From: Escherichia coli
Lineage (GTDB): Bacteria; Pseudomonadota; Gammaproteobacteria; Enterobacterales; Enterobacteriaceae
Length of the DNA stretch: 64,000 nt
Assembly: GCF_002854065.1 (NCBI RefSeq)
Contig: NZ_CP024147.1
Strand: one strand, 5' to 3'
Shown here: one piece after another, positions 10,118 through 51,045 of the stretch
Numbering within the stretch: the stretch's first letter is position 1
Layout of the letters: each line of letters starts with the position of its first letter
The notes under the pieces: model-generated
What the model was told of the DNA's origin: nothing
What the model saw: only the letters and a program-made list of their open reading frames with translations
Database searches by the model: none
Program-made: the position numbers and the translations under genes

Positions 10118-11043
10118 TAATAAACCGAACGCCCTAACTGTTTCGTCAATTGTTCAAGGACGGCAATGCCCGCAAGCGAGTTACCTGCATCATCCAGTTC
10201 CGGACTCCAGACTGCGATGGCCATTTCATGCGGAACAATCGCCACAATACCGCCCCCAACGCCAGATTTCGCCGGTAGTCCCACCCGCCAGGCAAACTCC
10301 CCCGCGTTCTGGTACATACCACTGGTCGCCATCAGCGCGTTAATTTGCCGCGCCTGCATTGGCGTCACCACTGGTTCATCAATATGAATAGCTTTCCCCT
10401 GATTAGCCAGAAAGACAAACGTCCGGGCCAGCTCTACACAGCTCATTTTCAGAGCGCAGTAATGAAAGTAGTTTTGCAGAACGGTTGTCACGTCATGATG
10501 GAAATTGCCAAACGACTTCATCAGCCAGGCGATAGCCGCATTTCGCGCGGAATGTTCAAATTCGGAACGCGCTACCACCGTATCGTAGGAAATATCAGAC
10601 ACACCGCTTAAGCCGCGCACGACTTCCAGCATACGTTGCCGTGGTGCGCTTAATCGCCCTTGCAACATATCGCAGACCACCAGCGCACCGGCATTAATAA
10701 ACGGATTACGCGGAATACCCTGCTCCATTTCCAGTTGCACTAAAGAATTGAACGGTGATCCAGACGGATCTTTGCCGACGCGTTGCCAGATTTCCTCTTC
10801 GGAGTAATGACGCATGGCGACAACGAGACTCAGCACTTTAGAAATAGACTGAATGGAAAAACGTTCTTGCGCGTCTCCGGCCTGAAAAAGCTGTCCGTCA
10901 ACGGTACAGATAGCAATGCCCAATCGGGAACCGTCTACCGTAGCCAGCGCTGGGATATAATCCGCGACTTTACCCTGACCAATGAGCGGCCGGACTTGCC
11001 GCAAGATGTTTTCTAAAATTGCATTATCCATGGCGACTGCCAC
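10117..11043 (-). CDS. glsB: glutaminase 2
   Basis: 308-aa ORF with serine-dependent glutaminase-type motifs (SISKVLS). Confidence 0.9.
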
Positions 11044-11106
11044 TTTCTACTCCTGGACCGCAGGTCTGAAAAGACCTGCGAGTATATCAGAGCTGAATAT
11101 GTCGCG

Positions 11107-12495
11107 TCAGATCCGGTCTTTCCACACCGTCTGGATATTACAGAATTCGTGTAAGCCGAAATGGGAAAGCTCACGACCAAAGCCACTCTTTTTCACGCCA
11201 CCAAAGGCCACTCGCGCGTCGCTGGCACAATAACCATTGATAAACACCCCACCGCATTCCAGACGTGCCGCCATCTGTCTGGCCTGTGTTTCGTCGGTGG
11301 TAAAAATGGTCGCTGAAAGGCCGAACTCACTATCATTAGCCAGTGCCAGCGCATGTTCTGCATCTTTCGCAATGGTGATTGCCGCAACGGGGCCAAACAT
11401 TTCTTCCCGAAACGCGGTCATTTCTGGGGTAACATTCGCCAGAACCGTTGGCGGATAGTAGTTACCTGCCCCAGCCATCTTTTCCCCGCCCAGTAACAAA
11501 CGCGCACCTTGCGCCAGGGTTTTCTCCACCTGATGATGCAGCTCATCACGTAAATCGAAACGAGCCATTGGTCCGAGAGCGTTATCTTCGTCACGGGGAT
11601 CGCCCATTTTCAAGGCTGCCGCAGCTGCCACAAAACGTTCGGTAAATGCCGAAGCAATTCCCTCTTCGATAATAAAGCGTTTTGCCGCTGCACAAACCTG
11701 TCCGGTATTCTGATAACGTCCGGCTACCGCCGCTTTAACCGCCAGTTCCAGATCGGCATCGTTAAGCACAATAAATGGATCCGAACCGCCCAGTTCCAGT
11801 ACGCATTTTTTCAGTGCCGCTCCAGCCTGTGCACCAATAGCCGCTCCCGCACGAACACTTCCGGTCACCGTGACAGCAGCAATGCGCGAGTCTTTAATCA
11901 TCTGACTGACACCGTCGTTGTGGGCATTCAGCCAGCCATATACGCCTTGTGGGATTCCCGCATCTTTAAACACCTGGGCAATGAGCTGAGCACAGCCCAT
12001 CACATTCGGCGCATGTTTAAGTAAGTAACCGTTACCAGCAAGAATGATGGGAACAGCGCCACGCATCACCTGCCATAACGGAAAATTCCACGGCATAATC
12101 GCCAGAATCGTCCCCAACGGTCGATACTCAATAACTGCCTGCTGATTTTCCACCAGCGTAGGTTCCGCCTTCAGCATTGCCGGACCATGTTCTGCATACC
12201 AGTCACACAAATTCGCCGATTTCGCCACTTCAGCGCGCGCCTGGTTGATTGGTTTGCCCATTTCGCGGGTGATCATTTGCGCCATTTCTTCGCTACGGGC
12301 GCGCAGAGCCTTACCGATATCACGCAGTTTTTCAGCACGATAATCTATATTTGTCTCGCGCCAGTCACGAAAGCCTGCTGCCGCCAGCTGAAGTGCGTTT
12401 TCGATATCATCAGCGCCAGCCCACGGCAACACAGAAAGTTGTTCACCCGTGGCAGGATTTATCGAAATTGCATGAGTTGCCGGAGTAATGGTCAT
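11107..12495 (-). CDS. sad: NAD-dependent succinate-semialdehyde dehydrogenase
   Basis: Aldehyde dehydrogenase motifs ([16 protein letters not shown]); ATG at 12495 gives ~462 aa (ORF track extends 8 codons upstream). Confidence 0.9.
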
Positions 12496-12595
12496 CGGGG
12501 TATCTCCTTTATGAGTCATGGTATGAAGATACGCAGATTTACTCTTGCTTTAAAATGAATAATATTAAGCCACTTATTCACGAATCGAGAATATT

Positions 12596-13477
12596 ATGGA
12601 TCTGACCCAACTGGAGATGTTCAACGCGGTTGCCGAAGCTGGCAGCATTACGCAGGCTGCAGCAATAGTGCATCGCGTGCCGTCGAATCTCACTACCCGT
12701 CTACGCCAGCTGGAAACAGAACTGGGGGTAGATCTGTTTATTCGCGAGAATCAGCGTTTACGTCTATCTCCTGCCGGGCATAACTTTTTACGCTATAGCC
12801 AACAAATTCTCGCGTTAGTGGATGAAGCGCGGAGCGTTGTCGCTGGCGATGAGCCGCAAGGTTTATTTTCTCTGGGTTCGCTGGAAAGCACCGCAGCAGT
12901 TCGCATTCCGGCCACGCTGGCGGAATTCAACCGTCGTTATCCCAAAATTCAGTTTTCACTTTCCACCGGCCCTTCCGGCACTATGCTGGAAGGTGTGCTG
13001 GAGGGAAAACTTAATGCGGCGTTTATTGATGGACCCATTAACCATACTGCCATTGACGGGATACCGGTATACCGCGAGGAGCTGATGATCGTCACGCCAC
13101 AAGGTCATGCGCCAGTAATCCGTGCCAGTCAGGTTAATGGCAGTAACATTTATGCCTTCCGCGCCAATTGTTCGTATCGTCGCCACTTCGAGAGCTGGTT
13201 TCATGCTGACGGTGCCGCTCCGGGAACTATCCATGAGATGGAGTCTTATCACGGAATGTTGGCCTGTGTGGTCGCAGGAGCAGGTATTGCGCTTATTCCG
13301 CGCTCTATGCTGGAAAGTATGCCGGGGCATCACCAGGTTGAAGCGTGGCCGTTAGCTGAGCAATGGCGTTGGCTAACAACCTGGCTGGTCTGGCGTCGTG
13401 GTGCGAAAACGCGTCCGCTCGAGGCATTTATTCAACTACTGGATGTGCCTGACTCGACAAAACAGGGTTACCAATGA
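12596..13477 (+). CDS. yneJ: LysR-family transcriptional regulator
   Basis: 293-aa ORF with N-terminal LysR HTH; divergent from sad with a 76-bp intergenic region carrying an ATTC-N9-GAAT dyad. Confidence 0.85.
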
Positions 13478-13554
13478 GCTATTTTTGATAGTTCTTGCGG
13501 CTAATATGCTCTATATAGTGATGTTCCGATGACTTATGACTATATGGGGCAAAT

Positions 13555-14670
13555 ATGGTTACGCCAGTAAGCATCAGCAATTACATATCTCTTCCTGATG
13601 ATTTTCCCGTTCGTAATATTGCACCGCAGGTAAAAGAAGTTTTAAAGGATTTTATTGATGCACTTAGTACAATAATATGTAATGAAGAGTGGCGCACGTC
13701 TTTAAACATCAACTCAGCCACAAAAAAGATATTTAATAACCTTGACAACTTATCATATATTCAGAGGACTTCTTTTCGGGGTAACGACACGCTATACAAT
13801 GAAAAGGTTCAGTTTAAACTCACTTATCCCGCCAGGAATGGAAGACACAAAGAAAATATTGAATTTCAGGTAGTAATAAATTTAAGTCCTATTTATTTAG
13901 ATAATTTCCGCCATGATGGAGAAATTAATATTTTTTGCGCTCCCAACCCAAAGCCTGTCACTATGGGGCGCGTATTTCAGACCGGCGTCGAGCGTGTGCT
14001 CTTTCTGTTTCTGAATGATTTTATTGAACAATTTCCAATGATAAACCCTGGCGTTCCCATCAAAAGAGCGCATACACCACATATTGAACCCCTGCCTCCG
14101 GATCACCATACCGCTGCAGATTACTTACGCCAGTTTGATTTGCTTGTCCTGAATTTTATCTCTCGCGGTAATTTTGTTATACTCCCCCGATTATGGAATA
14201 ACTCTGAGGTTCACAGATGGTTCGTCAATAAAGATCCTAACTTGATCACCGCCATTCTCGACATAACGGACAGCGAATTAAAAGAGGATTTATTGCAAAG
14301 CCTGATGGATTCATTAGGTTCTAACAAACATGTACTACCCGAAGTCTGCATCTGCTTTTTATCCCTTTTAGCAGAACAAGAATCTCCTCATTTTCAGGAC
14401 TTGTTTTTATTTTTCGCCAGTATGTTATTGCACTATCACCAATTTATGAATCCCAATGAAAGTGATTTGAATAACGTGTTGATGCCAGCATCATTAAGTG
14501 ATGATAAAATTATCAAACATATGGCGCGCAAGACCCTCAAACTTTTTGTAAAAAATAAAACACCGCCAAAAGTTACTCATGAAGACCTGGTGAAAAACAG
14601 GCCTCGCTCCCCTGTCAGACCACCTATACCCGCAACCTCCAAAACGCCAGACATTCCTGATCGTCATTAA
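13555..14670 (+). CDS. yneK: uncharacterized protein, AT-rich gene
   Basis: 371-aa ORF; noticeably lower G+C than neighbours. Confidence 0.7.
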   Translation: MVTPVSISNYISLPDDFPVRNIAPQVKEVLKDFIDALSTIICNEEWRTSLNINSATKKIFNNLDNLSYIQRTSFRGNDTLYNEKVQFKLTYPARNGRHKENIEFQVVINLSPIYLDNFRHDGEINIFCAPNPKPVTMGRVFQTGVERVLFLFLNDFIEQFPMINPGVPIKRAHTPHIEPLPPDHHTAADYLRQFDLLVLNFISRGNFVILPRLWNNSEVHRWFVNKDPNLITAILDITDSELKEDLLQSLMDSLGSNKHVLPEVCICFLSLLAEQESPHFQDLFLFFASMLLHYHQFMNPNESDLNNVLMPASLSDDKIIKHMARKTLKLFVKNKTPPKVTHEDLVKNRPRSPVRPPIPATSKTPDIPDRH

Positions 14671-32702: not shown

Positions 32703-33271
32703 TATGCAAGCCTCACAATATAGTTAAATGCGATGTTTTTGACGGTGTTTTCCGCGTTACCAGCAGCGTTAACGGTGATGGTGTGTCCATGTGAACCAAT
32801 CGCAACGGAGTGCGTATGAGCACCAATACCGACAGTATGTGCGTGTGCACCTGCGCTTGCAGCAGTGCCGGACAGTGAGTGGGTACTGGTATAATCCCAT
32901 TGAATATTTACACCAGTCGCATAATTTCCGATTGCAACGTAAATATCGTAAGTATCACCAGATGTATTGACCCAGGCAAAATTTGTAAACCCTGCCGATG
33001 TGCGCTGCCATAAAGCACCAGTAATCCCCTTCGGATTACCATTACCTGCACGCAAAACAAGTTCAGATATACCTGCCTGTTGAGGTGAACCGACGTTATA
33101 TCCAGCCCCACCAATCAACGTAATTGAAACAACAGAACTCGCCTGCGGCATGGTTACCGTTGCTAATTTGAACCAACCAGCACCACCGCTGAATGACATT
33201 GTTGTTGAGTTAAGCGTACCAATATCTTTCGGTGTCAGTGTTATATCCGCTGAAAGCGCCTTACCATTCAC
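32702..33271 (-). pseudogene. stfQ: side tail fibre, C-terminal fragment only
   Basis: 189-codon ORF with tail-fibre-tip-like C-terminus ([22 protein letters not shown] repeats); no ATG, in-frame stop 6 codons upstream at 33290-33292. Confidence 0.75.
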
Positions 33272-33275
33272 CTTA

Positions 33276-33401
33276 CGGGCAGAAGGTATTCACGCAGGGA
33301 AAATATCTTTCCCCCTCCGGTGTTCTCACCACGAAGCCGCACGACTCCGCTGGCGCACATCGCCGGGCGTGCGCCAGAATCGCTGATTCTGTCTCTGTCA
33401 T
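33276..33401 (-). pseudogene. N-terminal stub (42 codons) of lambda K-like tail assembly protein
   Basis: Minus-strand translation [38 protein letters not shown] then TFCP-stop; near-identical to the lambda K N-terminus as I recall it, then divergent. Confidence 0.7.
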
Positions 33402-34114: not shown

Positions 34115-34444
34115 CTATGCCACGACCTGTTCAAAATCTGCCGTTATGGTTACCCACAACGCCCCCACGCTTGCCGACCATTTACGACAAACCACCCTGA
34201 TCGGCTTCCAGTCATAAGGTGGCGTCCACTGAAATGCGCGGACGCCACCGTGCCGTTCCAGAAAGGCTTTTAAAGATGGGTGTTCACATTTACGAACACG
34301 TATAGTCACGCTGTAAATCGACAACTGGTTATTCAGTCCCGCCGCACGACGCTGTTCATAACCATCGCCCAGCTTCACTGTCACCACTTTCGGCTCTGAT
34401 ACCACATTCATATCCGGGCGCACTTTCCAGTGAAACGTCTCCAT
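34115..34444 (-). CDS. minor tail protein M (lambda M homologue)
   Basis: 109 aa; METFHWKVRPDMNVVSEPKV... closely resembles lambda M. Confidence 0.85.
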   Translation of the reverse strand: METFHWKVRPDMNVVSEPKVVTVKLGDGYEQRRAAGLNNQLSIYSVTIRVRKCEHPSLKAFLERHGGVRAFQWTPPYDWKPIRVVCRKWSASVGALWVTITADFEQVVA

Positions 34445-36618
34445 TACCGATATGCTCCACTTAACCGACCACCATCACGGGCCTGCTGTTGCATAAAGTC
34501 CGCTGCCGCTTTTTTCCCAAGGTCATAAACCACCTTCAGGGCAGCCGGACCTATCTGCCCGTTCGTGCCATCGTTATTGATCTCGATGTTGTACTGCGGG
34601 GCAAACATCGCCATACCTGAACCACCAATATCCGCCACAACCCCCAGCTTACCGTCAGCACCACGACGCAGTGGCAGAATGGCTTCAGGTCCAGCTTCCC
34701 CCATCACACCCGCGCCTTTTGCAAAAGCAAAAAACGTCGGACGGTTAACCACCGTGCCACTGTAACGACTCAAATCAGCAGACTGATAAATCCCCCCATT
34801 GGCATTCAGGGAAAGGCTGCTGAGATCAAATCCCAGTACACTGCCAATCCCTTTTATCGATTTCATCATGGTTGCCTGCGCCAGGATTTTCGCCATATCT
34901 GACAGCACCGAAGAGGTGAAGGATTTGAAGTTGAGTTTGCCGGTAGTGACAAAAGTTGCCAGGCCATTTCCCATGTTGCTGAAGGCTGATGAGAACACCT
35001 GTTCTGCTGTTCCTGCCGTATTGTCTGCATCCACGGTAAAATCCTGAAATGCACGCAGGACTCCGTTTTTCCAGTTACCCTGCACAACTTCAAGCTGTTG
35101 CCAGTAACGGCGATTCTCATTCAGTTGTCGGTTCAGGCTCTCCGTCAGCGCCTGCTCGGCCTTTCTGTAGTCATCCGTGTTATATGTCCCTTTCTGCTCA
35201 CTATCCCGCCTCAACTGCTCCAGCTGTTGCTGGTATTTCTGGCGAAGACTCAGTTGTACCTGATATCGCTGCCGCTGCTGATCACCCATACCCACCGTGG
35301 CGATATCCAGGTCATGTTGCTGACGCTGAGCGCGCTCTTCTTCAGCCAGTTGACTGGTCAGCTGAATTGTTTTTTTCTTCAGATCGTTGAGTGCCGTCTG
35401 TTTCTGAAGCTCCTGCTGTTTTACATCCAGCAGCGTCAGTGCCTGAATCAGTTCATCTTTACGGGCCAGCACACTCTTTTCATCTGCCGTCAGTTTTTTC
35501 CCGTCCAGATCGCTGATGCGCTGCTGCAGAGCCAGAAGCTGTTTATGCGCTTCTGTCATCTTTTCAGTGGCAATGCCTGCTGACTGTCTTGCAGCAGCAA
35601 TCTGTCCTTCCACCTGTGCCTGTTGCTGACTGTACTGCAGCAATAACCGGGTGGCCTCATCATTACGGGGTTCGCGTGTTTTTTTCTTACCGGATGCCAG
35701 GGCTTTCTCGTAACGTTCATTTTCACGTTGTATCGCCGCATCCCTGACAGCCTGATCGGCGTACTGCATGGCATTAATACGCGCAATTTCACGCTGATGT
35801 CGTGCTGCTTCCGTTTCATTCATCCGGTTCAGTGCAGCATTTTCAGCATTACGGCGTTTCTGTTGCTCCTGATAATTCCGCTCTGCCTGCTCTTTTGCAT
35901 CCTGCAAATCCTTCTGGCGTTTTTTCTCCTGAAGCTCGTTAAGACGCTGCTGATCGTACTCAACCTGAGAAGATGATGCCGTCCAGGGGAGTCTTTTCAC
36001 CCGCGACACTTTCTCCTGTAAAGCGGAAATCTGTTCATCCAGCGAGTCTTCACGACCAATATTCATGGCCGCATCCCAGAAACGACTCCATAAATCAGAC
36101 AGATACTTCAGCGTACTGCCCAGCGCATTGAGGTTATTATCAATATCCGCAGTACGCCGACCGGTTTCCTCTGCCAGTGCAGACATGGCTATCCGTGCCG
36201 CATCACTGGACCGCCCCTGTTCCCCAAGGACGCGTATCTGTTCAAGCTGAGTGGCAGTAAGAAAATGCAGCTCATTGTCCAGAGCCTTCGCGGCATTTAC
36301 AGGATCATCCTTCAGCCGCTTAAACTGATTTATGGTATCGCTGACCGACTGGCCAACCGATCGCTCCATCTGTGCGGCAGCTCTCGCCACCATACGGGAT
36401 GGATCATGAACAGAGTCTGCTGCCTCATGCTTCACACTAAACAGGGCTGGCCCGACATGGTGCAGGGCGTAAACGGGGTTCCCCCTGACAGTCGCAGCCA
36501 CAGGAGTGTTGGCCGCGAGGAGCCGTTTTTTTACTGTGTCCCGGTGAAGCCCAAAGGCCTCAGCGATTTTAAAAACACTCCAGTAATAAGCATCACCGAT
36601 CCCGCTCACATTTGACAT
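34444..36618 (-). CDS. chimeric ORF: Nu1-like terminase small-subunit N-terminal DNA-binding region fused to lambda H-like tail tape measure (central and C-terminal parts)
   Basis: C-terminus INNDGTNGQIGPAALKVVYD...RDGGRLSGAYR matches the lambda H C-terminus; glutamine-rich coiled-coil middle; N-terminal ~100 aa has a Nu1-like winged-HTH pattern; ATG at 36618 has GGAG 6 nt upstream (track ORF extends to 36648). Confidence 0.7.
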   Translation of the reverse strand: MSNVSGIGDAYYWSVFKIAEAFGLHRDTVKKRLLAANTPVAATVRGNPVYALHHVGPALFSVKHEAADSVHDPSRMVARAAAQMERSVGQSVSDTINQFKRLKDDPVNAAKALDNELHFLTATQLEQIRVLGEQGRSSDAARIAMSALAEETGRRTADIDNNLNALGSTLKYLSDLWSRFWDAAMNIGREDSLDEQISALQEKVSRVKRLPWTASSSQVEYDQQRLNELQEKKRQKDLQDAKEQAERNYQEQQKRRNAENAALNRMNETEAARHQREIARINAMQYADQAVRDAAIQRENERYEKALASGKKKTREPRNDEATRLLLQYSQQQAQVEGQIAAARQSAGIATEKMTEAHKQLLALQQRISDLDGKKLTADEKSVLARKDELIQALTLLDVKQQELQKQTALNDLKKKTIQLTSQLAEEERAQRQQHDLDIATVGMGDQQRQRYQVQLSLRQKYQQQLEQLRRDSEQKGTYNTDDYRKAEQALTESLNRQLNENRRYWQQLEVVQGNWKNGVLRAFQDFTVDADNTAGTAEQVFSSAFSNMGNGLATFVTTGKLNFKSFTSSVLSDMAKILAQATMMKSIKGIGSVLGFDLSSLSLNANGGIYQSADLSRYSGTVVNRPTFFAFAKGAGVMGEAGPEAILPLRRGADGKLGVVADIGGSGMAMFAPQYNIEINNDGTNGQIGPAALKVVYDLGKKAAADFMQQQARDGGRLSGAYR

Positions 36619-36798
36619 AAGCAACTCCATCTGGCAGGTGAAAATCATGTTTATTTATATATTTCAATTAATTGCAAACTGGTCTAATGACAGGGAGAAA
36701 AAAATATTGTACAGGTGAAAAGAGAAATAACTTTTAATTATCAATAAATTACCAAACATGCTGCCGCCGCCATGGAAATGCAAAAACTAGCCTTTTTC

Positions 36799-36818
36799 CG
36801 CGACGCTCCCGCCCCGTG
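36799..36818 (-). other. lambda-like cos (cosN-like) sequence ~180 bp upstream of the Nu1-like start
   Basis: Minus strand reads ACGGGGCGGGAGCGTCGCGG, close to the lambda cosN region ACGGGGCGGCGACCTCGCGG as I recall it. Confidence 0.55.
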
Positions 36819-37182
36819 GCAGGGGCCCCCACCGGGAGGACCCGACAGCCTGACAGCCGTGACGAGCATCTGATACAGCGCTTTACATAATGGCATAGGA
36901 ATAATTCAGAAGGACATCACAGCATGCCCACACAAATTAGTGTGAGTGTCCTGTTTCTTCCTACGCACAGGACTGACGAGCATGAGGGGAAAATATGCGA
37001 ACCATAAATGCCTCATCTTCAGCAATGCAGCCGGCATCCGAACAGGACGATATTGTAAATTCACCTAATTACGAGGACATTGCAGTAGTTGAATTGCAGC
37101 TCTGTATTAGCCTGACAGTGACAGAATGCGATACTGACTCTGTCACAGGTGAAATAGTTTGAATGATTAGCAGTTATGGTGC

Positions 37183-37389
37183 TCAGTCAACCACCAGGGA
37201 ATAATCCTTCGAATTCTTATCGTGCTTCACCAACGCTGCCTCAATTGCCCTGAATGCTTCCAGAGACACCTGATGTTCTATACATGCAATTACAACATCC
37301 GGGTAACTCATAGAAATGGTGCTATTAAGCATATTTTTTACACGAATCAGATCCAACGAGAGTTCATCAGCAGATTGTTCTTTATTCAT
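37183..37389 (-). CDS. small uncharacterized prophage protein
   Basis: 68-aa ORF in the AT-rich moron region divergent from ydfO. Confidence 0.5.
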
Positions 37390-37689
37390 TTTGTCGCTCC
37401 ATGCGTTTGCTCGTCATCTAGCGGTTAAAATATTACTTCAAATCTTTCTGCATAAAAGAGGAAAAGTATGAAAGTTTGAGTACATCGACCTTACATACAT
37501 CTGTCGGTTGCATATCCCTCCTGGATGCCAGCAAGGCTCAACTTTGTTACGCAATCAACACTATTCATTAAAAACAGGCTTAATATTTGACATAAATCAT
37601 CAACAAAACACAAAGAGGTCAGACCAGATTGAAACAATAAACACGATAATGCAAACTACGCGCCATCGTATCACATGGAAGGTTAACCA

Positions 37690-38100
37690 ATGGCTCAGGC
37701 TGCCATTTTTAAAGAAATATTCGATCAAGTGCGTAAAGATTTAAACTGTGAATTATTTTATTCTGAGCTAAAACGTCACAATGTCTCACTTTATATTTAC
37801 TATTTAGCCACAGATAATATTCACATTGTGTTAGAAAACGACAACATAGTGTTAGTAAAAGGACTCAAAAAGGTTGTAAATGTTAAATTCTCCAGAAACA
37901 AACATCTTATAGAGACCTCCTATAATAAGTTGAAATCAAAAGAAATCACATTTCAACAATACAGGGATAATCTTGCTAAAGCAGGAGTTTTCCGATGGGT
38001 TACAAATATCCAGGAACACCAAAGATATTACTATGCCTTTGATAACTCATTACTATTTACTGAAAGCATCCAGAAAACTACACAGATCTTACCACGCTAA
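37690..38100 (+). CDS. ydfO: uncharacterized prophage protein (DUF1398, YdfO-like)
   Basis: 136-aa ORF. Confidence 0.7.
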
Positions 38101-38251
38101 ACCATAACGTCCGGCTTCTCTCACTCCTGAGCCGGACTGCATTGGTTTAATAAAAACCATCAACAATTGTGATTTAGATATTCGGAACCATTCAAATATA
38201 ACAAAACCCCGTAAAAACGAGGTTTATGGATAAATTTTATTATTGAATACA

Positions 38252-38425
38252 TCAGATTAAATTAATCTTGACATCATAGCTTTCAAGACCCGTCATTTTT
38301 TCCCGTGCGGTAAACTGAATACTGGTAACTTCTTTCCCGGTCTTTTTCTTAAGTTCAATAATTTTTTTTGTTATATATTCAGAAATATCTGCTTCTGCTT
38401 TTGTTTTTAAGTCTTCAATATTCAT
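38252..38425 (-). CDS. gnsB: 57-aa GnsA/GnsB-family small protein
   Basis: Minus-strand translation MNIEDLKTKAEADISEYITKKIIELKKKTGKEVTSIQFTAREKMTGLESYDVKINLI; too short for the ORF track. Confidence 0.75.
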   Translation of the reverse strand: MNIEDLKTKAEADISEYITKKIIELKKKTGKEVTSIQFTAREKMTGLESYDVKINLI

Positions 38426-38596
38426 CATTTCCTCTTTTAGTCTGTTATGACTTTCCAGTTACACAGTAAATCGATTATATGGTGCAAACGTGTAAAAGAT
38501 AAGATGAAAAATCGCAATAATCAACATACGATAGTCTAAATTTTACACAAACAGACAAAGAGAATTTTCCTGAATTATCAATGCAATAGCATCAAA

Positions 38597-38752
38597 TCAA
38601 CTCAAGAGCCTTATTGCTGCTTCCAGAATTTCTTCTGAAGTAACATGTCGATCCGCGGCTACATAAATGACTTTATGATCTCCGGTCAGAGATGGAAACC
38701 CTGCGGCCATTACAGTAAGGTGTGTTTTTTCGCCATTTGGATATTCACGCAT
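38597..38752 (-). CDS. ynfN: small prophage protein (YnfN-like); start uncertain
   Basis: 51 aa from MREYPNGEK...; the same frame stays open upstream to 38869. Confidence 0.6.
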   Translation of the reverse strand: MREYPNGEKTHLTVMAAGFPSLTGDHKVIYVAADRHVTSEEILEAAIRLLS

Positions 38753-38870
38753 GATGGTGTTAACTCCAGTCATCGCTGGCACTACCACTGCTGGTTCAGA
38801 GTTAAAAAAAACTATGATTTTTTTCATGATGTTACCGTAGTATGTGAGTATCCATCGAATAGACACCAAG

Positions 38871-38905
38871 CAAAAAAGCTCCCGAAGGAGCCTTCATTTT
38901 CACTT
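38871..38905. terminator. bidirectional-looking hairpin (GCTCC-CGAA-GGAGC) flanked by A-run and T-run, ~200 bp downstream of cspI
   Basis: AAAAAAGCTCCCGAAGGAGCCTTCATTTTCACTTTTTT. Confidence 0.55.
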
Positions 38906-39098
38906 TTTTAAATCCAACGACAGACGGCTGGCATTTAAGTATTGTGAAATATTATCAAATGTAATCATCATTGATTTACAAAAGATACATTTTGCCCCGA
39001 AAGGATTCATGTCAGAAACATCAAAAGATGATGTTCTATACTGGGAACCATGACAACACGGGCATCTAAAGTGAATATGGTTTGTAATATTGTCTACC

Positions 39099-39311
39099 TC
39101 AAAGCGCCACTACATGAACAGCGGCAGGACCTTTAGGTCCGTTCTCAATACCAAATTCAACTTCCTGATTCTCAGTTAATGTTTTGAAATCGTTGCTCTG
39201 AATTGCTGAGAAATGGACAAACACATCTTTGCTGCCATCTTTCGGCGTGATGAAACCAAAACCTTTTTCAGGGTTAAACCATTTCACTAAACCAGTCATT
39301 TTGTTAGACAT
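39099..39311 (-). CDS. cspI: CspA-family cold shock protein
   Basis: 70 aa, [23 protein letters not shown]... with RNP1/RNP2 motifs. Confidence 0.9.
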
Positions 39312-39673
39312 AATTATTACCTTTTGAAGAAATTAGCCCTTGGGCAGAATGGTCCGAAAAAAAATATCAGAGAGAAAAACCAACAAGGAAATCCCAAGAG
39401 GTACAAATAATAAAATTATAACAATGACTGCTTCAGATAAATTTGTAACAAACCAGAACACCATTAACGCATGATTAACCACCCATAGCAAGGATTACTT
39501 TTGTAAAGAAAAACACAGCAATGAAAGAATAGCTTTATTTATTAATAAAACGTGTCATTCTGATTAAGACCTTTTATCTTACCCTTAAGATTTCAGGAAT
39601 TTTGGCTCATGGAAGAGTCCTTTTTATTTAAATTTTACATTCCGCGATGTAAATGTTCCGATTTAATATTACC

Positions 39674-42874: not shown

Positions 42875-44516
<1,642 letters not shown>

Positions 44517-44852
44517 GTTTTTCAACCTGAAGTGTCAGCGAGAGTAAAAAATTATGGTGACCATTTTACCGTTGACTCAATAAGGCAGATGTGGGACGCA
44601 GCGATAAAACGTGCCGGACTCCGCCATTGAAAATCATATCAGTCGAGACATACTTATGCCTGCTGGTCGCTGACAGCTGGTGCTAACCCGGCATTTATAG
44701 CAAACCAGATGGGCCATGCAGATGCGCAAATGGTATTTCAGGTATACGGAAAATGGATGTCTGAAAACAATAATGCACAGGTAGCTTTGTTAAATACACA
44801 GTTAAGCGAGTTTGCCCCAACCATGCCCCATAACGAAGCAATGAAAAATTAA
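44517..44852 (+). pseudogene. intQ: tyrosine integrase C-terminal remnant with an in-frame stop
   Basis: Frame reads ...WDAAIKRAGLRH-stop(TGA 44628-44630)-KSYQSRHTYACWSLTAGANPAFIANQMGHADAQMVFQVYGKWM...; begins at the IS right end, ends 38 bp before attR. Confidence 0.65.
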
Positions 44853-48328: not shown

Positions 48329-48889
48329 ATGCCAAGCGCCCACAGTGTTAAGCTACGCCCGCTGGAGCGTGAAGATTTACGCTATGTACATCAACTCGAC
48401 AATAACGCCAGTGTGATGCGTTACTGGTTTGAGGAACCCTACGAAGCCTTTGTTGAACTCTCTGATCTGTATGATAAGCATATTCACGATCAGAGCGAAC
48501 GACGCTTTGTGGTGGAATGTGACGGCGAAAAAGCCGGTCTGGTGGAGTTGGTGGAAATTAACCATGTACATCGCCGCGCAGAATTTCAGATAATTATCTC
48601 CCCGGAGTATCAGGGGAAAGGTCTGGCAACCCGTGCCGCCAAATTAGCAATGGACTATGGCTTCACCGTTCTCAATCTCTATAAGCTGTATCTGATCGTC
48701 GATAAAGAGAATGAAAAAGCGATTCACATTTACCGCAAGCTTGGCTTTACGGTTGAAGGTGAATTGATGCATGAGTTCTTTATTAATGGTCAATATCGTA
48801 ATGCTATTCGCATGTGTATATTCCAGCATCAGTATCTGGCAGAGCACAAAACACCGGGTCAGACTCTCCTGAAGCCGACCGCACAATAG
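48329..48889 (+). CDS. speG: spermidine N1-acetyltransferase (GNAT)
   Basis: 186-aa ORF with GNAT fold motifs. Confidence 0.9.
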
Positions 48890-49174
48890 CATTAATAATA
48901 ATCGATCGTATTTTTGATGGTGTAAACCCGTTCGACGGCGGGTTTTACTCCTTCATCAACAATGATCAGCTGACAGTCCACTGGATTGGCGTGACTGTCA
49001 TATTCACAGCTCTGTTTTACATTACCAACCCGTTGATTGTTCAGTAAAGTAACCGCTGTGTAATCTAATTTTTTGATCGGATCCGTTGATGGCGTGGCGC
49101 TGACAGATAATGTTTTGTCGTTACTTTTCGTGGTTTTACCCAGCGGATACCCCTGATCATCATTGGATTTGCCC

Positions 49175-50080
49175 CTATATTTCCAGACATCTGTTATCAC
49201 TTAACCCATTACAAGCCCGCTGCCGCAGATATTCCCGTGGCGAGCGATAACCCAGCGCACTATGCGGATGCCATTCGTTATAATGCTCGAACGCCTCTGC
49301 AAGGTTCTTTGCTGCCGTTAACCCGTCTGGTTTGGGCATGATACTGATGTAGTCACGCTTTATCGTTTTCACGAAGCTCTCTGCTATTCCGTTACTCTCC
49401 GGACTCCGCACCGCCGTGTTCTTCGGTTCAAGTCCCAACATCCGGGCGAACTGGCGTGTTTCATTAGCCCGGTAGCATGAACCATTATCCGTCAGCCACT
49501 CCACTGGAGACGACGGAAGATCGTTGCCGAAGCGGCGTTCCACCGCTCCCAGCATGACGTCCTGTACTGTTTCACTGTTGAAGCCGCCGGTAGTGACCGC
49601 CCAGTGCAGTGCCTCACGATCACAGCAGTCCAGCGCGAACGTGACACGCAGTCTCTCTCCGTTATCACAGCAGAACTCGAACCCGTCAGAGCACCATCGC
49701 TGATTGCTTTCTTTCACGGCCACTCTGCCTGTATGTGCCCGTTTCGATGGCGGTACAGCAGGTTTTCGCTCAAGCAACAGCGCATTCTGGCGCATGATCC
49801 GGTAAACACGTTTGGCATTGATCGCAGGCATACCATCAAGTTCTGCCTGTCTGCGAAGCAGCGCCCATACCCGACGATAACCATACGTGGGCAGCTCTCC
49901 GATAACATGGTGTATACGGAGAAGCACATCCGTATCATCAGTGTGACGACTGCGGCGGCCATCCATCCAGTCATCGGTTCGTCTGAGAATGACGTGCAAC
50001 TGCGCACGCGACACCCGGAGACAACGGCTGACTAAGCTTACTCCCCATCCCCGGGCAATAAGGGCGCGTGCGCTATCCAC
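49175..50080 (-). CDS. insD: IS2 transposase OrfB (InsD-type)
   Basis: 301-aa DDE transposase ORF overlapping insC. Confidence 0.9.
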
Positions 50081-50403
50081 TTTTTTGCCCGTCCATATTC
50101 AACGGCTTCTTTGAGGAGTTCATTTTCCATCGTTTTCTTGCCGAGCAGGCGCTGGAGTTCTTTAATCTGCTTCATGGCGGCAGCAAGTTCAGAGGCAGGA
50201 ACAACCTGTTCTCCGGCGGCGACAGCAGTAAGACTTCCTTCCTGGTATTGCTTACGCCAGAGAAATAACTGGCTGGCTGCTACACCATGTTGCCGGGCAA
50301 CGAGGGAGACCGTCATCCCCGGTTCAAAGCTCTGCTGAACAATTGCGATCTTTTCCTGTGTGGTACGCCGTCTGCGTTTCTCCGGCCCTAAGACATCAAT
50401 CAT
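50038..50403 (-). CDS. insC: IS2 OrfA (InsC-type)
   Basis: [56 protein letters not shown]... Confidence 0.9.
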
Positions 50404-51045
50404 CTGTTCTCCAATGACTAGTCTAAAAACTAGTATTAAGACTATCACTTATTTAAGTGATATTGGTTGTCTGGAGATTCAGGGGGCCAGTCTAATCATA
50501 GCGATATTCCATCTGCATCTGTTTGCTGCTGGCTTTAATCACGAAGCCATTATCATCGGTTTCCCAACTCACCCCGGCAGAAGGTAATTCTGCTAGCTGG
50601 CATTTTCCCTGTAAACGTACTCTCTTCTCCAGCGTCTCGGCATCACGGTAATAATTGGCGTCCAGTACCAGAGCGACCACGGTATTATTTTCCAGATCCA
50701 GTAATTCGAGTGAATCAAAACAGCCTTCTTCCGACAAAGTCCCCGAAACACGTTTCGTCACTTCACCTTGCTCATCCATTAATGTCTGAGTGAAATCTTT
50801 TACCGGACCACGCAGCGGATCAAAATCGAATTCATTAGAGAAACTGGCCATCTCAGGAGTAAATGAAAGTGTTACCTCTGTGCGGTCACATCCTGTGAGT
50901 AATATCGCGAGTAAGCATGGCAGTAATTTGTATTTCACATCAGTCACCAGAGAGTAGAGATGATTCTCAATCATAGTAGCAAATACAGTACTTTACACGT
51001 TAAATGCTATGCTTAAAGAAGTTATCTTCGCGTAAGGAGCTTATG

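Follow-up and report, generated by a model that had tools for sequence, protein, structure and literature searches.

A cos site of the lambda family, very probably complete and of the cdtI packaging type, retained in a decayed Qin-locus prophage of Escherichia coli

In lambda-like cos sites, as reviewed in PMC4669245, the 7-bp cosQ element is highly conserved and indeed invariant, the CG dinucleotides at the nicks are conserved as well, and base pairs 7 to 12 of the cohesive end vary freely. Phages lambda and 21 have both cosQ and cosN in common but discriminate more than 1000-fold via cosB (PMC4669245). The same source lists Gifsy-1 among the phages with a lambda-like cos. With respect to the architecture of lambda cosB, the R3 element is located at bp 50-65 (PMC9026076). 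The fate of cos sites residing in prophages has also been addressed: an infecting phage of the same specificity initiates packaging at the prophage cos, whereupon the motor stalls (PMC4669245, section 18). Recombination junctions between lambda and the defective prophage DLP12 cluster near the DLP12 cos, and breaks at this cos were proposed to stimulate recombination with lambda (PMC3945230). Cos sites which are associated with a small terminase (TerS) of the DUF1441 type are not among the packaging specificities documented in PMC4669245 and PMC9026076. Our search of the full-text literature yielded no paper describing a cos of the cdtI type, the genome announcement of phage Ayreon merely guessing a cos location, and the corresponding search for the cohesive-end string GGGCGGGAGCGT returned unrelated mammalian papers only.

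The window, by which we mean the entire analysed stretch of 64,000 nucleotides of E. coli DNA, corresponds to the Qin locus of K-12 with its ydfJ flank, the module present between positions 32885 and 37612 being different from that of K-12 Qin. The original prediction held that a lambda-like cos persists here in a prophage remnant which lacks terminase. This is borne out by the termini of phage genome records, which fall at the predicted nick, by the conservation of cosQ, cosN and their spacing, and by the complete deletion of terL together with the truncation of terS. We consider it very probable that the minus strand of 36620-36845 constitutes the complete lambda-family cos, comprising cosQ, cosN and cosB, of the packaging module known from phages cdtI, Tritos and HannyBb, that it has been retained as a passive cis-site in a Qin-locus prophage decayed in three steps, and that a terminase of the same specificity could cleave it in trans. 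In kind, a lambda-family cos at this place is an ordinary relic. The coordinates of the features discussed below are compiled in Table 1.

Table 1. Features in and around the retained cos site (window coordinates; bp values count from the left end generated at cosN).
Feature	Position	Strand	Remarks
Leader	36844..37182	.	between ybcW-like gene and cosQ
Hairpin 2, GTGACAGA/TCTGTCAC	37118-37146		perfect 8 bp stem
55-aa ORF	36995-37162	+	phrog_4035, full length, E = 1.4e-40; opposite late transcription
10-mer direct repeat TGACGAGCAT	36860-36869 and 36974-36983		family D2
Hairpin 1, GGACATCACA/TGTGAGTGTCC	36913-36951		one bulge
Tandem GACAGCCT, 1.9 copies	36845-36859		directly upstream of cosQ
cosQ heptamer GGGTCCT	36837..36843	-	29 bp upstream of top-strand nick
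cosN	36801..36816	-	reads CG/GGGCGGGAGCGT/CG
Candidate R3-equivalent CCATGGCGGCGGCAGCATGT	36756..36775	-	bp 40-59; positional conservation
IHF consensus TATCAATAAATTA, candidate I1	36739..36751	+	bp 64-76
Candidate small-terminase site TTTTCACCTGTACA	36708..36721	-	CACCTG at bp 98-103; direct-repeat family D1
Candidate small-terminase site TTTTCACCTGCCAG	36631..36644	-	CACCTG at bp 175-180; direct-repeat family D1
terS::tape-measure fusion ORF	34444..36618	-	in frame; ~77 terS codons plus C-terminal two thirds of tape-measure protein
10.4-kb deletion junction	36390..36395	-	microhomology GTATGG
IS3-family element	~43260-44517		orfA/orfB-like ORFs at 43295-43642 and 43462-44508

The GC-rich 20-mer ACGGGGCGGGAGCGTCGCGG, which had first drawn attention to this region, is cosN. 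An exact match to it is found on the minus strand at 36817..36798; its letters had thus been given correctly, while the coordinates originally assigned to it (36818-36799) were too high by 1 nt. The pattern ACGGGGCGGN5TCGCGG occurs a single time in the 64-kb window, in which only 0.13 chance matches are expected even if up to two mismatches are tolerated. The first base of the genome records of both cdtI and Tritos coincides with window position 36814 in minus-strand reading and the last base of the Tritos record with 36815. Since these record termini map there, we assume that the top strand is nicked at the step from 36815 to 36814; for cdtI, the record carries a circular annotation. Judged from the same termini, the 5' cohesive end would span 12 nt, 36814..36803, and read GGGCGGGAGCGT. 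On both flanks of cosN the CG dinucleotide is kept. The two-fold symmetry of the element comprises 8 of 16 bp versus 10 of 16 in lambda (the latter figure taken from PMC9026076).

An IMG/VR scan with the small terminase provided 58 distinct upstream regions of relatives whose TerS identity ranges from 53 to 100%. Within this set the left half of the cohesive end, GGGCGG, is nearly invariant, bp 7-12 are variable, and some of the IMG/VR relatives carry lambda's own CGACCT at the latter positions. The variation of the window's cohesive end is the very pattern which PMC4669245 gives for lambda-like cos sites. As a further observation, bp 1 is A instead of G in some IMG/VR relatives (AGGCGGCGGCCC, AGGCGGCGACCA), even among those with closely related TerS.

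The heptamer GGGTCCT, embedded in CGGGTCCTCCCGGTG, was detected by nick-anchored ungapped comparison with lambda. It becomes visible only in this way and in multiple alignments, not in a stringent local alignment. The cosQ of lambda (bp 48473-48479) is situated 30 bp upstream of the nick, that of the window being 1 bp closer, which leaves a spacer between cosQ and cosN of 19 nt in the window versus 20 nt in lambda. In a multiple alignment of the window with lambda, cdtI, HannyBb, PhiR40_1, mEp213, VT1-Sakai and Kp4865-4, cosQ is conserved, as is cosN in the comparison with lambda, Gifsy-1, mEp213, VT1-Sakai and the Klebsiella phage, and a cosQ-like heptamer resides at -29/-30 in the 58 distinct relatives, those bearing GGGTCCT sharing its position. 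Moreover, about 64 bp of core sequence (36844-36781) recur in many phages which are otherwise unrelated, namely mEp213, mEp043, VT1-Sakai, several Stx2 phages, CP-1639 and a Klebsiella phage.

These results decide upon the view that the 20-mer merely reflects chance GC richness and that no cos is present at all. Support for it comes from the stringent local alignment of the 560-bp region with the lambda cos junction, which recovers nothing but the 21-column cosN core. Yet the records of two phages terminate exactly at the predicted nick, cosQ is correctly spaced, the 64-bp core is kept across many phages, and the positions are conserved over 58 distinct relatives, with hardly any match to be expected by chance. 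A coincidental 20-mer is thereby refuted, and we rate its probability as practically nil. The original prediction had reckoned with the case that no alignment to lambdoid cos regions extends beyond the 20-mer; this case does not apply, as cosQ at 29 bp and the ~64-bp core are conserved in addition.

Directly upstream of cosQ, about 40-56 bp upstream of the nick, a Fur-box-like palindrome, GATGATAATCATTATC, was noticed in lambda (48,44x-48,46x), mEp213, VT1-Sakai and the Klebsiella phage Kp4865-4. Compared with the 19-mer which we take to be the Fur consensus, it attains 15 to 17 matches out of 19 in these four phages, a score of 15 out of 19 being reached by none of 2,000 random 150-mers. The lineage of the window is devoid of this palindrome; the equivalent segment (36853-36872) reads GATGCTCGTCACGG and includes the first copy of TGACGAGCAT.

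On the other side of cosN, the distance from the nick to the ATG of the adjoining gene (at 36618) amounts to 196 bp, compared to 190 bp between nick and Nu1 gene in lambda and 195 bp in the Providencia phage PSTCR8lys, so that this gene does start at the distance from cosN which had been anticipated. Neither local nor anchored comparison reveals any alignable similarity between the cosB-like region which occupies these 196 bp of the window and the cosB of lambda. Nevertheless, several elements are positionally conserved among the relatives of the window. The candidate R3-equivalent CCATGGCGGCGGCAGCATGT sits roughly where R3 is located in lambda; CATG..GCAGCA[G/T]GT is found at the matching position in relatives, and the majority of the 58 carry CA[G/T]GT at bp 55. 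The IHF consensus proposed as I1 is one of five exact matches to WATCAANNNNTTR in the 64-kb window, and its core, YTGAW, has been retained at bp 71 by the majority of the relatives. The original prediction had suggested scanning the repeats for IHF and R-site motifs. An IHF consensus exists at bp 64-76, whereas the repeats of the leader, which will be dealt with below, hardly look like cos subsites.

Two further candidate sites harbour a CACCTG. At bp 98 this hexamer is present throughout the cdtI subgroup and confined to it, the group with TerS identities of 53-59% displaying GAGGTGACA/CTGTCACCTC inverted repeats at this position instead. The distal site TTTTCACCTGCCAG is placed directly upstream of the ribosome-binding site of terS; here, with few exceptions, the 58 distinct relatives carry CACCTG at bp 174/175, PSTCR8lys among them. 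In addition, a CTGTCA is found at bp 122 in the window and at bp 121 in PSTCR8lys. The positional conservation suggests that the candidate elements may serve as R-type or small-terminase sites. Putatively assigned in this manner, the layout resembles that of the complex cosB of lambda with sites on both sides of an IHF bend and an additional distal site.

The gene which adjoins cos encodes, according to Pfam and PHROG, a small terminase of the DUF1441 type. The original prediction had termed its start Nu1-like, which holds for its position but not for its sequence: BLASTP of the DUF1441 TerS against lambda Nu1 results in an E value of 4.6, hhalign assigns a probability of 10%, and a phmmer search of the PDB indicated no relationship between the two proteins. 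As far as sequence comparison can tell, the adjacent gene is thus a positional analogue of Nu1 only, without detectable similarity. An AlphaFold model of TerS, which is of moderate confidence (pLDDT 71), shows an N-terminus with the succession strand-helix-helix-wing-helix, and its best Foldseek neighbours are MerR-type winged helix-turn-helix domains and DNA-binding domains of small terminases, although with non-significant scores (E >= 0.09). The N-terminus is accordingly predicted to be a MerR-like winged helix-turn-helix, which would share no more than the fold class with Nu1. The N-terminal 76 residues of the TerS encoded in the window differ from those of cdtI by a single residue. For the large subunit, TerL of cdtI is a distant homologue of lambda gpA (24% identity over 627 aa, E = 4e-22).

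In the window, no more than about 77 codons of terS are left and terL is missing altogether, which renders the packaging module not self-sufficient; the original statement that the remnant contains no terminase is hereby confirmed. The truncated terS continues in frame into the tape-measure gene. In the resulting fusion ORF, PHROG recognises a small terminase at residues 10-78 and a tape measure at residues 75-724, and Pfam finds DUF1441 at residues 15-77 plus tape-measure (TMP) domains. The whole predicted winged helix-turn-helix domain of TerS would accordingly be kept.

The fusion originates from a deletion of 10.4 kb. Positions 1-434 of cdtI correspond to 36814-36381 of the window and positions 10811-13912 to 36395-33284, the two segments meeting at the hexamer given in Table 1, which marks the deletion as a microhomology-mediated decay step. 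Lost with it are the 3' half of terS, terL, the portal gene, the head and tail-shaft genes and the 5' third of the tape-measure gene. Among 5,426 complete E. coli genomes, the terS::tape-measure junction is present in one (strain 100416), although 565 of them cover at least 80% of window 36500-37200 and at least one, strain 98206, possesses the same cos beside an intact morphogenesis region. It follows that the decay of the prophage is recent. As the junction is nearly unique, the retention of cos may simply mirror this recency.

Further traces of decay are apparent within the window. A second internal deletion concerns 32885-33284: similarity to cdtI breaks off at 33284 within the gpK (C40 peptidase) gene, and a match to K-12 stfQ sets in again at 32885, genes I and J and most of the tail-tip region being missing. 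By this deletion, the gpK gene is joined to stfQ. The IS3-family element takes the place of the Qin early region, which in K-12 comprises ydfU, rem, hokD, relBE, flxA, dicA/C, dicF and dicB, and it truncates the Q-antiterminator homologue ydfT (window 42875-43255). Of intQ, only the last ~335 bp are left (44517-44852). The claim that the remnant is devoid of replication and excision functions therefore proved right, its early region having been replaced by the IS3-family element and its integrase gene having been reduced to the intQ remnant. The decay has accordingly comprised three steps: the 10.4-kb deletion, the deletion joining gpK and stfQ, and the IS3-family replacement of the early region with truncation of Q. 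Outside these changes, an insertion of 1.3 kb relative to K-12 is found at 49164-50494 between speG and ynfC; since it agrees at 100% identity with the K-12 IS2E fragment over its first 706 bp, it probably represents a full IS2. A cspA thermoregulator (RF01766, 122 bits) is matched on the minus strand at 39068-39400; it precedes the cspI homologue, which belongs to the moron block located between Rz and cos, as expected for Qin.

The cos itself has been left unscathed by these events. Its bp 1-200 are identical to those of strain 98206, whose prophage still has an intact morphogenesis region, and they differ from HannyBb at two positions and from cdtI at four, none of which lies in cosN or in the IHF core. 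Likewise, bp -1 to -44 are identical to Tritos and strain 98206 and exhibit three differences from HannyBb, none of them in cosQ. A cos free of lesions implies that the locus has been preserved as a passive cis-site. By analogy with the described systems, a terminase of the cdtI type provided in trans should still cut it while that of lambda should not. Should a phage with this packaging specificity multiply in the cell, the TerS which it encodes would assemble on cosB together with IHF, and the TerL of this helper would, as in lambda, nick cosN. DNA on the cosB side would then enter the prohead, that is from 36814 towards lower coordinates, through the remnant tail genes to ydfJ and beyond, and thus in the direction away from the Rz side. 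As the 64-kb window yielded no further cosN-type match, packaging is not expected to terminate. The outcome would be stalled, non-infectious heads rather than transduction. In addition, the double-strand break at cos might promote recombination with the infecting helper. The classical precedent is provided by the 'doc' particles of lambda. In the closest complete genome, that of strain 100416, a single copy of the cos region is present, and for this reason the cognate terminase is probably absent from the cell unless a phage infects.

The original prediction had envisaged that the terminase of a co-resident lambdoid phage could in principle cleave or package adjacent chromosomal DNA. This may well apply to a helper of the cdtI type, but hardly to lambdoid phages in general, given that cosB is not alignable with that of lambda. 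A substrate for lambda-type (Nu1/gpA) terminases would indeed be usable by any such phage, and such a role is suggested by the left half of cosN and by cosQ, which are identical to those of lambda, by the presence, at this very locus in K-12, of nohA and of a cos almost the same as that of lambda, and by the terminase of N15, which packages lambda DNA despite its divergence (PMC4669245). However, cosB shows no alignable similarity, the sequence of the cognate TerS bears no relation to that of Nu1, and four of the twelve positions of the cohesive end differ from lambda. As lambda and 21 discriminate through cosB and the cosB of the window is unlike that of lambda, terminases of the lambda type are unlikely helpers; use of the site by lambdoid phages at large appears highly improbable to us. 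Plausible helpers are, judged by sequence relationship, confined to the specificity group of cdtI, Tritos and HannyBb.

A different role was considered for the combination of cos and the TerS DNA-binding-domain fusion, namely that of a decoy which lowers the yield of superinfecting phages of the cdtI type. Initiation at a prophage cos gives dead particles and thereby reduces phage yield, as argued in PMC4669245, and the fusion ORF would supply an entire winged helix-turn-helix domain. Yet a junction present in only one of 5,426 genomes gives no sign of selection, late transcription of the fusion is doubtful since the Q antiterminator gene is truncated by the IS element, and a single chromosomal cos makes a poor competitor against many phage concatemers. 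We therefore deem a decoy function very unlikely and adhere to the passive relic.

Upstream of cosQ, the leader had been described as rich in repeats and strong hairpins. Regarding the former, exact 10-mer direct repeats are enriched in the segment 36650-37180, with three pairs versus 0.16 in shuffled sequences (P = 0.014); yet the 10-mer is not conserved, and no enrichment is seen in this segment for short hairpins with 8-bp stems (P = 0.2 against shuffles). The two repeat copies predicted at about 36878-36890 and 36972-36985 do share the 10-mer TGACGAGCAT. The first of them, however, had been placed some 18 nt off, and the copies deviate from each other in the 11th base (G vs C). Both hairpins exist as well, but their strength is modest with folding z-scores of -2.2 to -2.6 for segments which had been picked after the fact. 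The tandem next to cosQ contains one extra 8-bp copy of GACAGCCT in Tritos. As to the 55-aa ORF, HannyBb has ACG in place of its ATG, and 1-nt gaps are present in HannyBb and PhiR30_1, which makes protein coding doubtful; hairpin 2 sits in the 3' end of this ORF. In its composition the leader is a mosaic: phages of the mEp460 type, whose TerS is only about 42% identical, match 36718-37011 at about 82%, and 36964-37200 is common to the window and PhiR30_1, a phage with a terminase of the Nu1 type. A third copy of ACAGGTGAAA together with hairpin 2 (37118-37154) was evaluated as an extra TerS site and rejected, as HannyBb with an identical TerS lacks the CAGGTG and PhiR30_1 has the hairpin.

It is against this background that the repeats and hairpins at 36845-37180 have to be judged as functional accessory sites of cos or as a structured RNA leader of the late operon. 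The enrichment of exact 10-mers, the folding z-scores of around -2.4, a change in one arm of hairpin 1 which looks compensatory in 569R4 and PhiR40_1, and the third ACAGGTGAAA copy adjoining hairpin 2 are in favour of such a role. But the two TGACGAGCAT copies are unlike in relatives (TGACGAACGT vs TGGCGAGCAT), the third CAGGTG has been lost in HannyBb in spite of a 100% identical TerS, and hairpin 2 is not restricted to phages with a DUF1441-type terminase as it recurs in PhiR30_1. Furthermore, an Rfam scan of 36400-39400 matched the cspA thermoregulator only and nothing in the leader, no terminator-like sites were found in 36400-37700, where promoter-like sites are not in excess, and hairpin counts do not exceed those of shuffles. 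Altogether there is little sign and no good evidence that the elements of the leader act as cos subsites, and we judge either function unlikely.

What the retained cos signifies beyond annotation is little. It indicates the point at which the chromosome would be cut by the terminase of a cognate helper and the direction in which host DNA would enter capsids, and it documents a recent, microhomology-mediated decay step in a Qin-locus prophage. Maybe more useful is a by-product, a map of the positions which cosQ, cosN, the IHF site and the CACCTG elements occupy across 58 distinct cos regions of the DUF1441 type; it supplies testable candidate recognition sites for this packaging group. Going further, one might speculate that the cos group with DUF1441-type TerS, which includes cdtI, Gifsy-2, mEp460, VT1-Sakai and relatives, forms one or more lambda-like packaging specificities beyond the documented ones of lambda, 21 and N15, with a cosB made up of CACCTG-type sites around an IHF bend, and that the orphan cos of this strain, with or without the in-frame TerS DNA-binding-domain fusion, serves as a decoy against superinfecting phages of the cdtI type or as a hot spot of recombination against them. 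In its entirety, we regard this as a long shot.

The closest known counterparts are cdtI (NC_009514), Tritos (OV696610) and HannyBb (PP925841), with 97-99% nucleotide identity across cosQ, cosN and cosB of the window, the same 12-nt end and record termini at the nick base of the window. In contrast to these phages, the window is lacking the 10.4 kb which follow downstream, from the 3' half of terS through the 5' third of the tape-measure gene; moreover, the sequence upstream of cosQ in cdtI is unrelated to that of the window. With lambda, the window has in common the GGGTCCT of cosQ, the GGGCGG left half of the cohesive end, the CG at both nicks, a similar distance to the small-terminase gene, and an IHF site inside cosB, and lambda gpA is homologous to TerL of cdtI, the window's cognate phage. 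It deviates from lambda at bp 7, 8, 9 and 11 of the cohesive end (8/12 match), in a cosB which is not alignable, in a TerS which belongs to the DUF1441 rather than the Nu1 family, and in the absence of the Fur-box-like palindrome. The cohesive end of Gifsy-1, GGGCGGCAGCGT, matches at 11 of 12 positions, differing at bp 7 only, and its cosQ is as in the window, but its TerS is a homologue of those of lambda (Nu1) and phage 21, and its cosB is unlike that of the window. The Qin prophage of K-12 shares the chromosomal locus, yet its cos, accompanied by a Nu1 homologue (nohA), is a near-identical copy of that of lambda. Like the window, both Qin and DLP12 of K-12 have kept a cos in a defective prophage beside a small-terminase gene.
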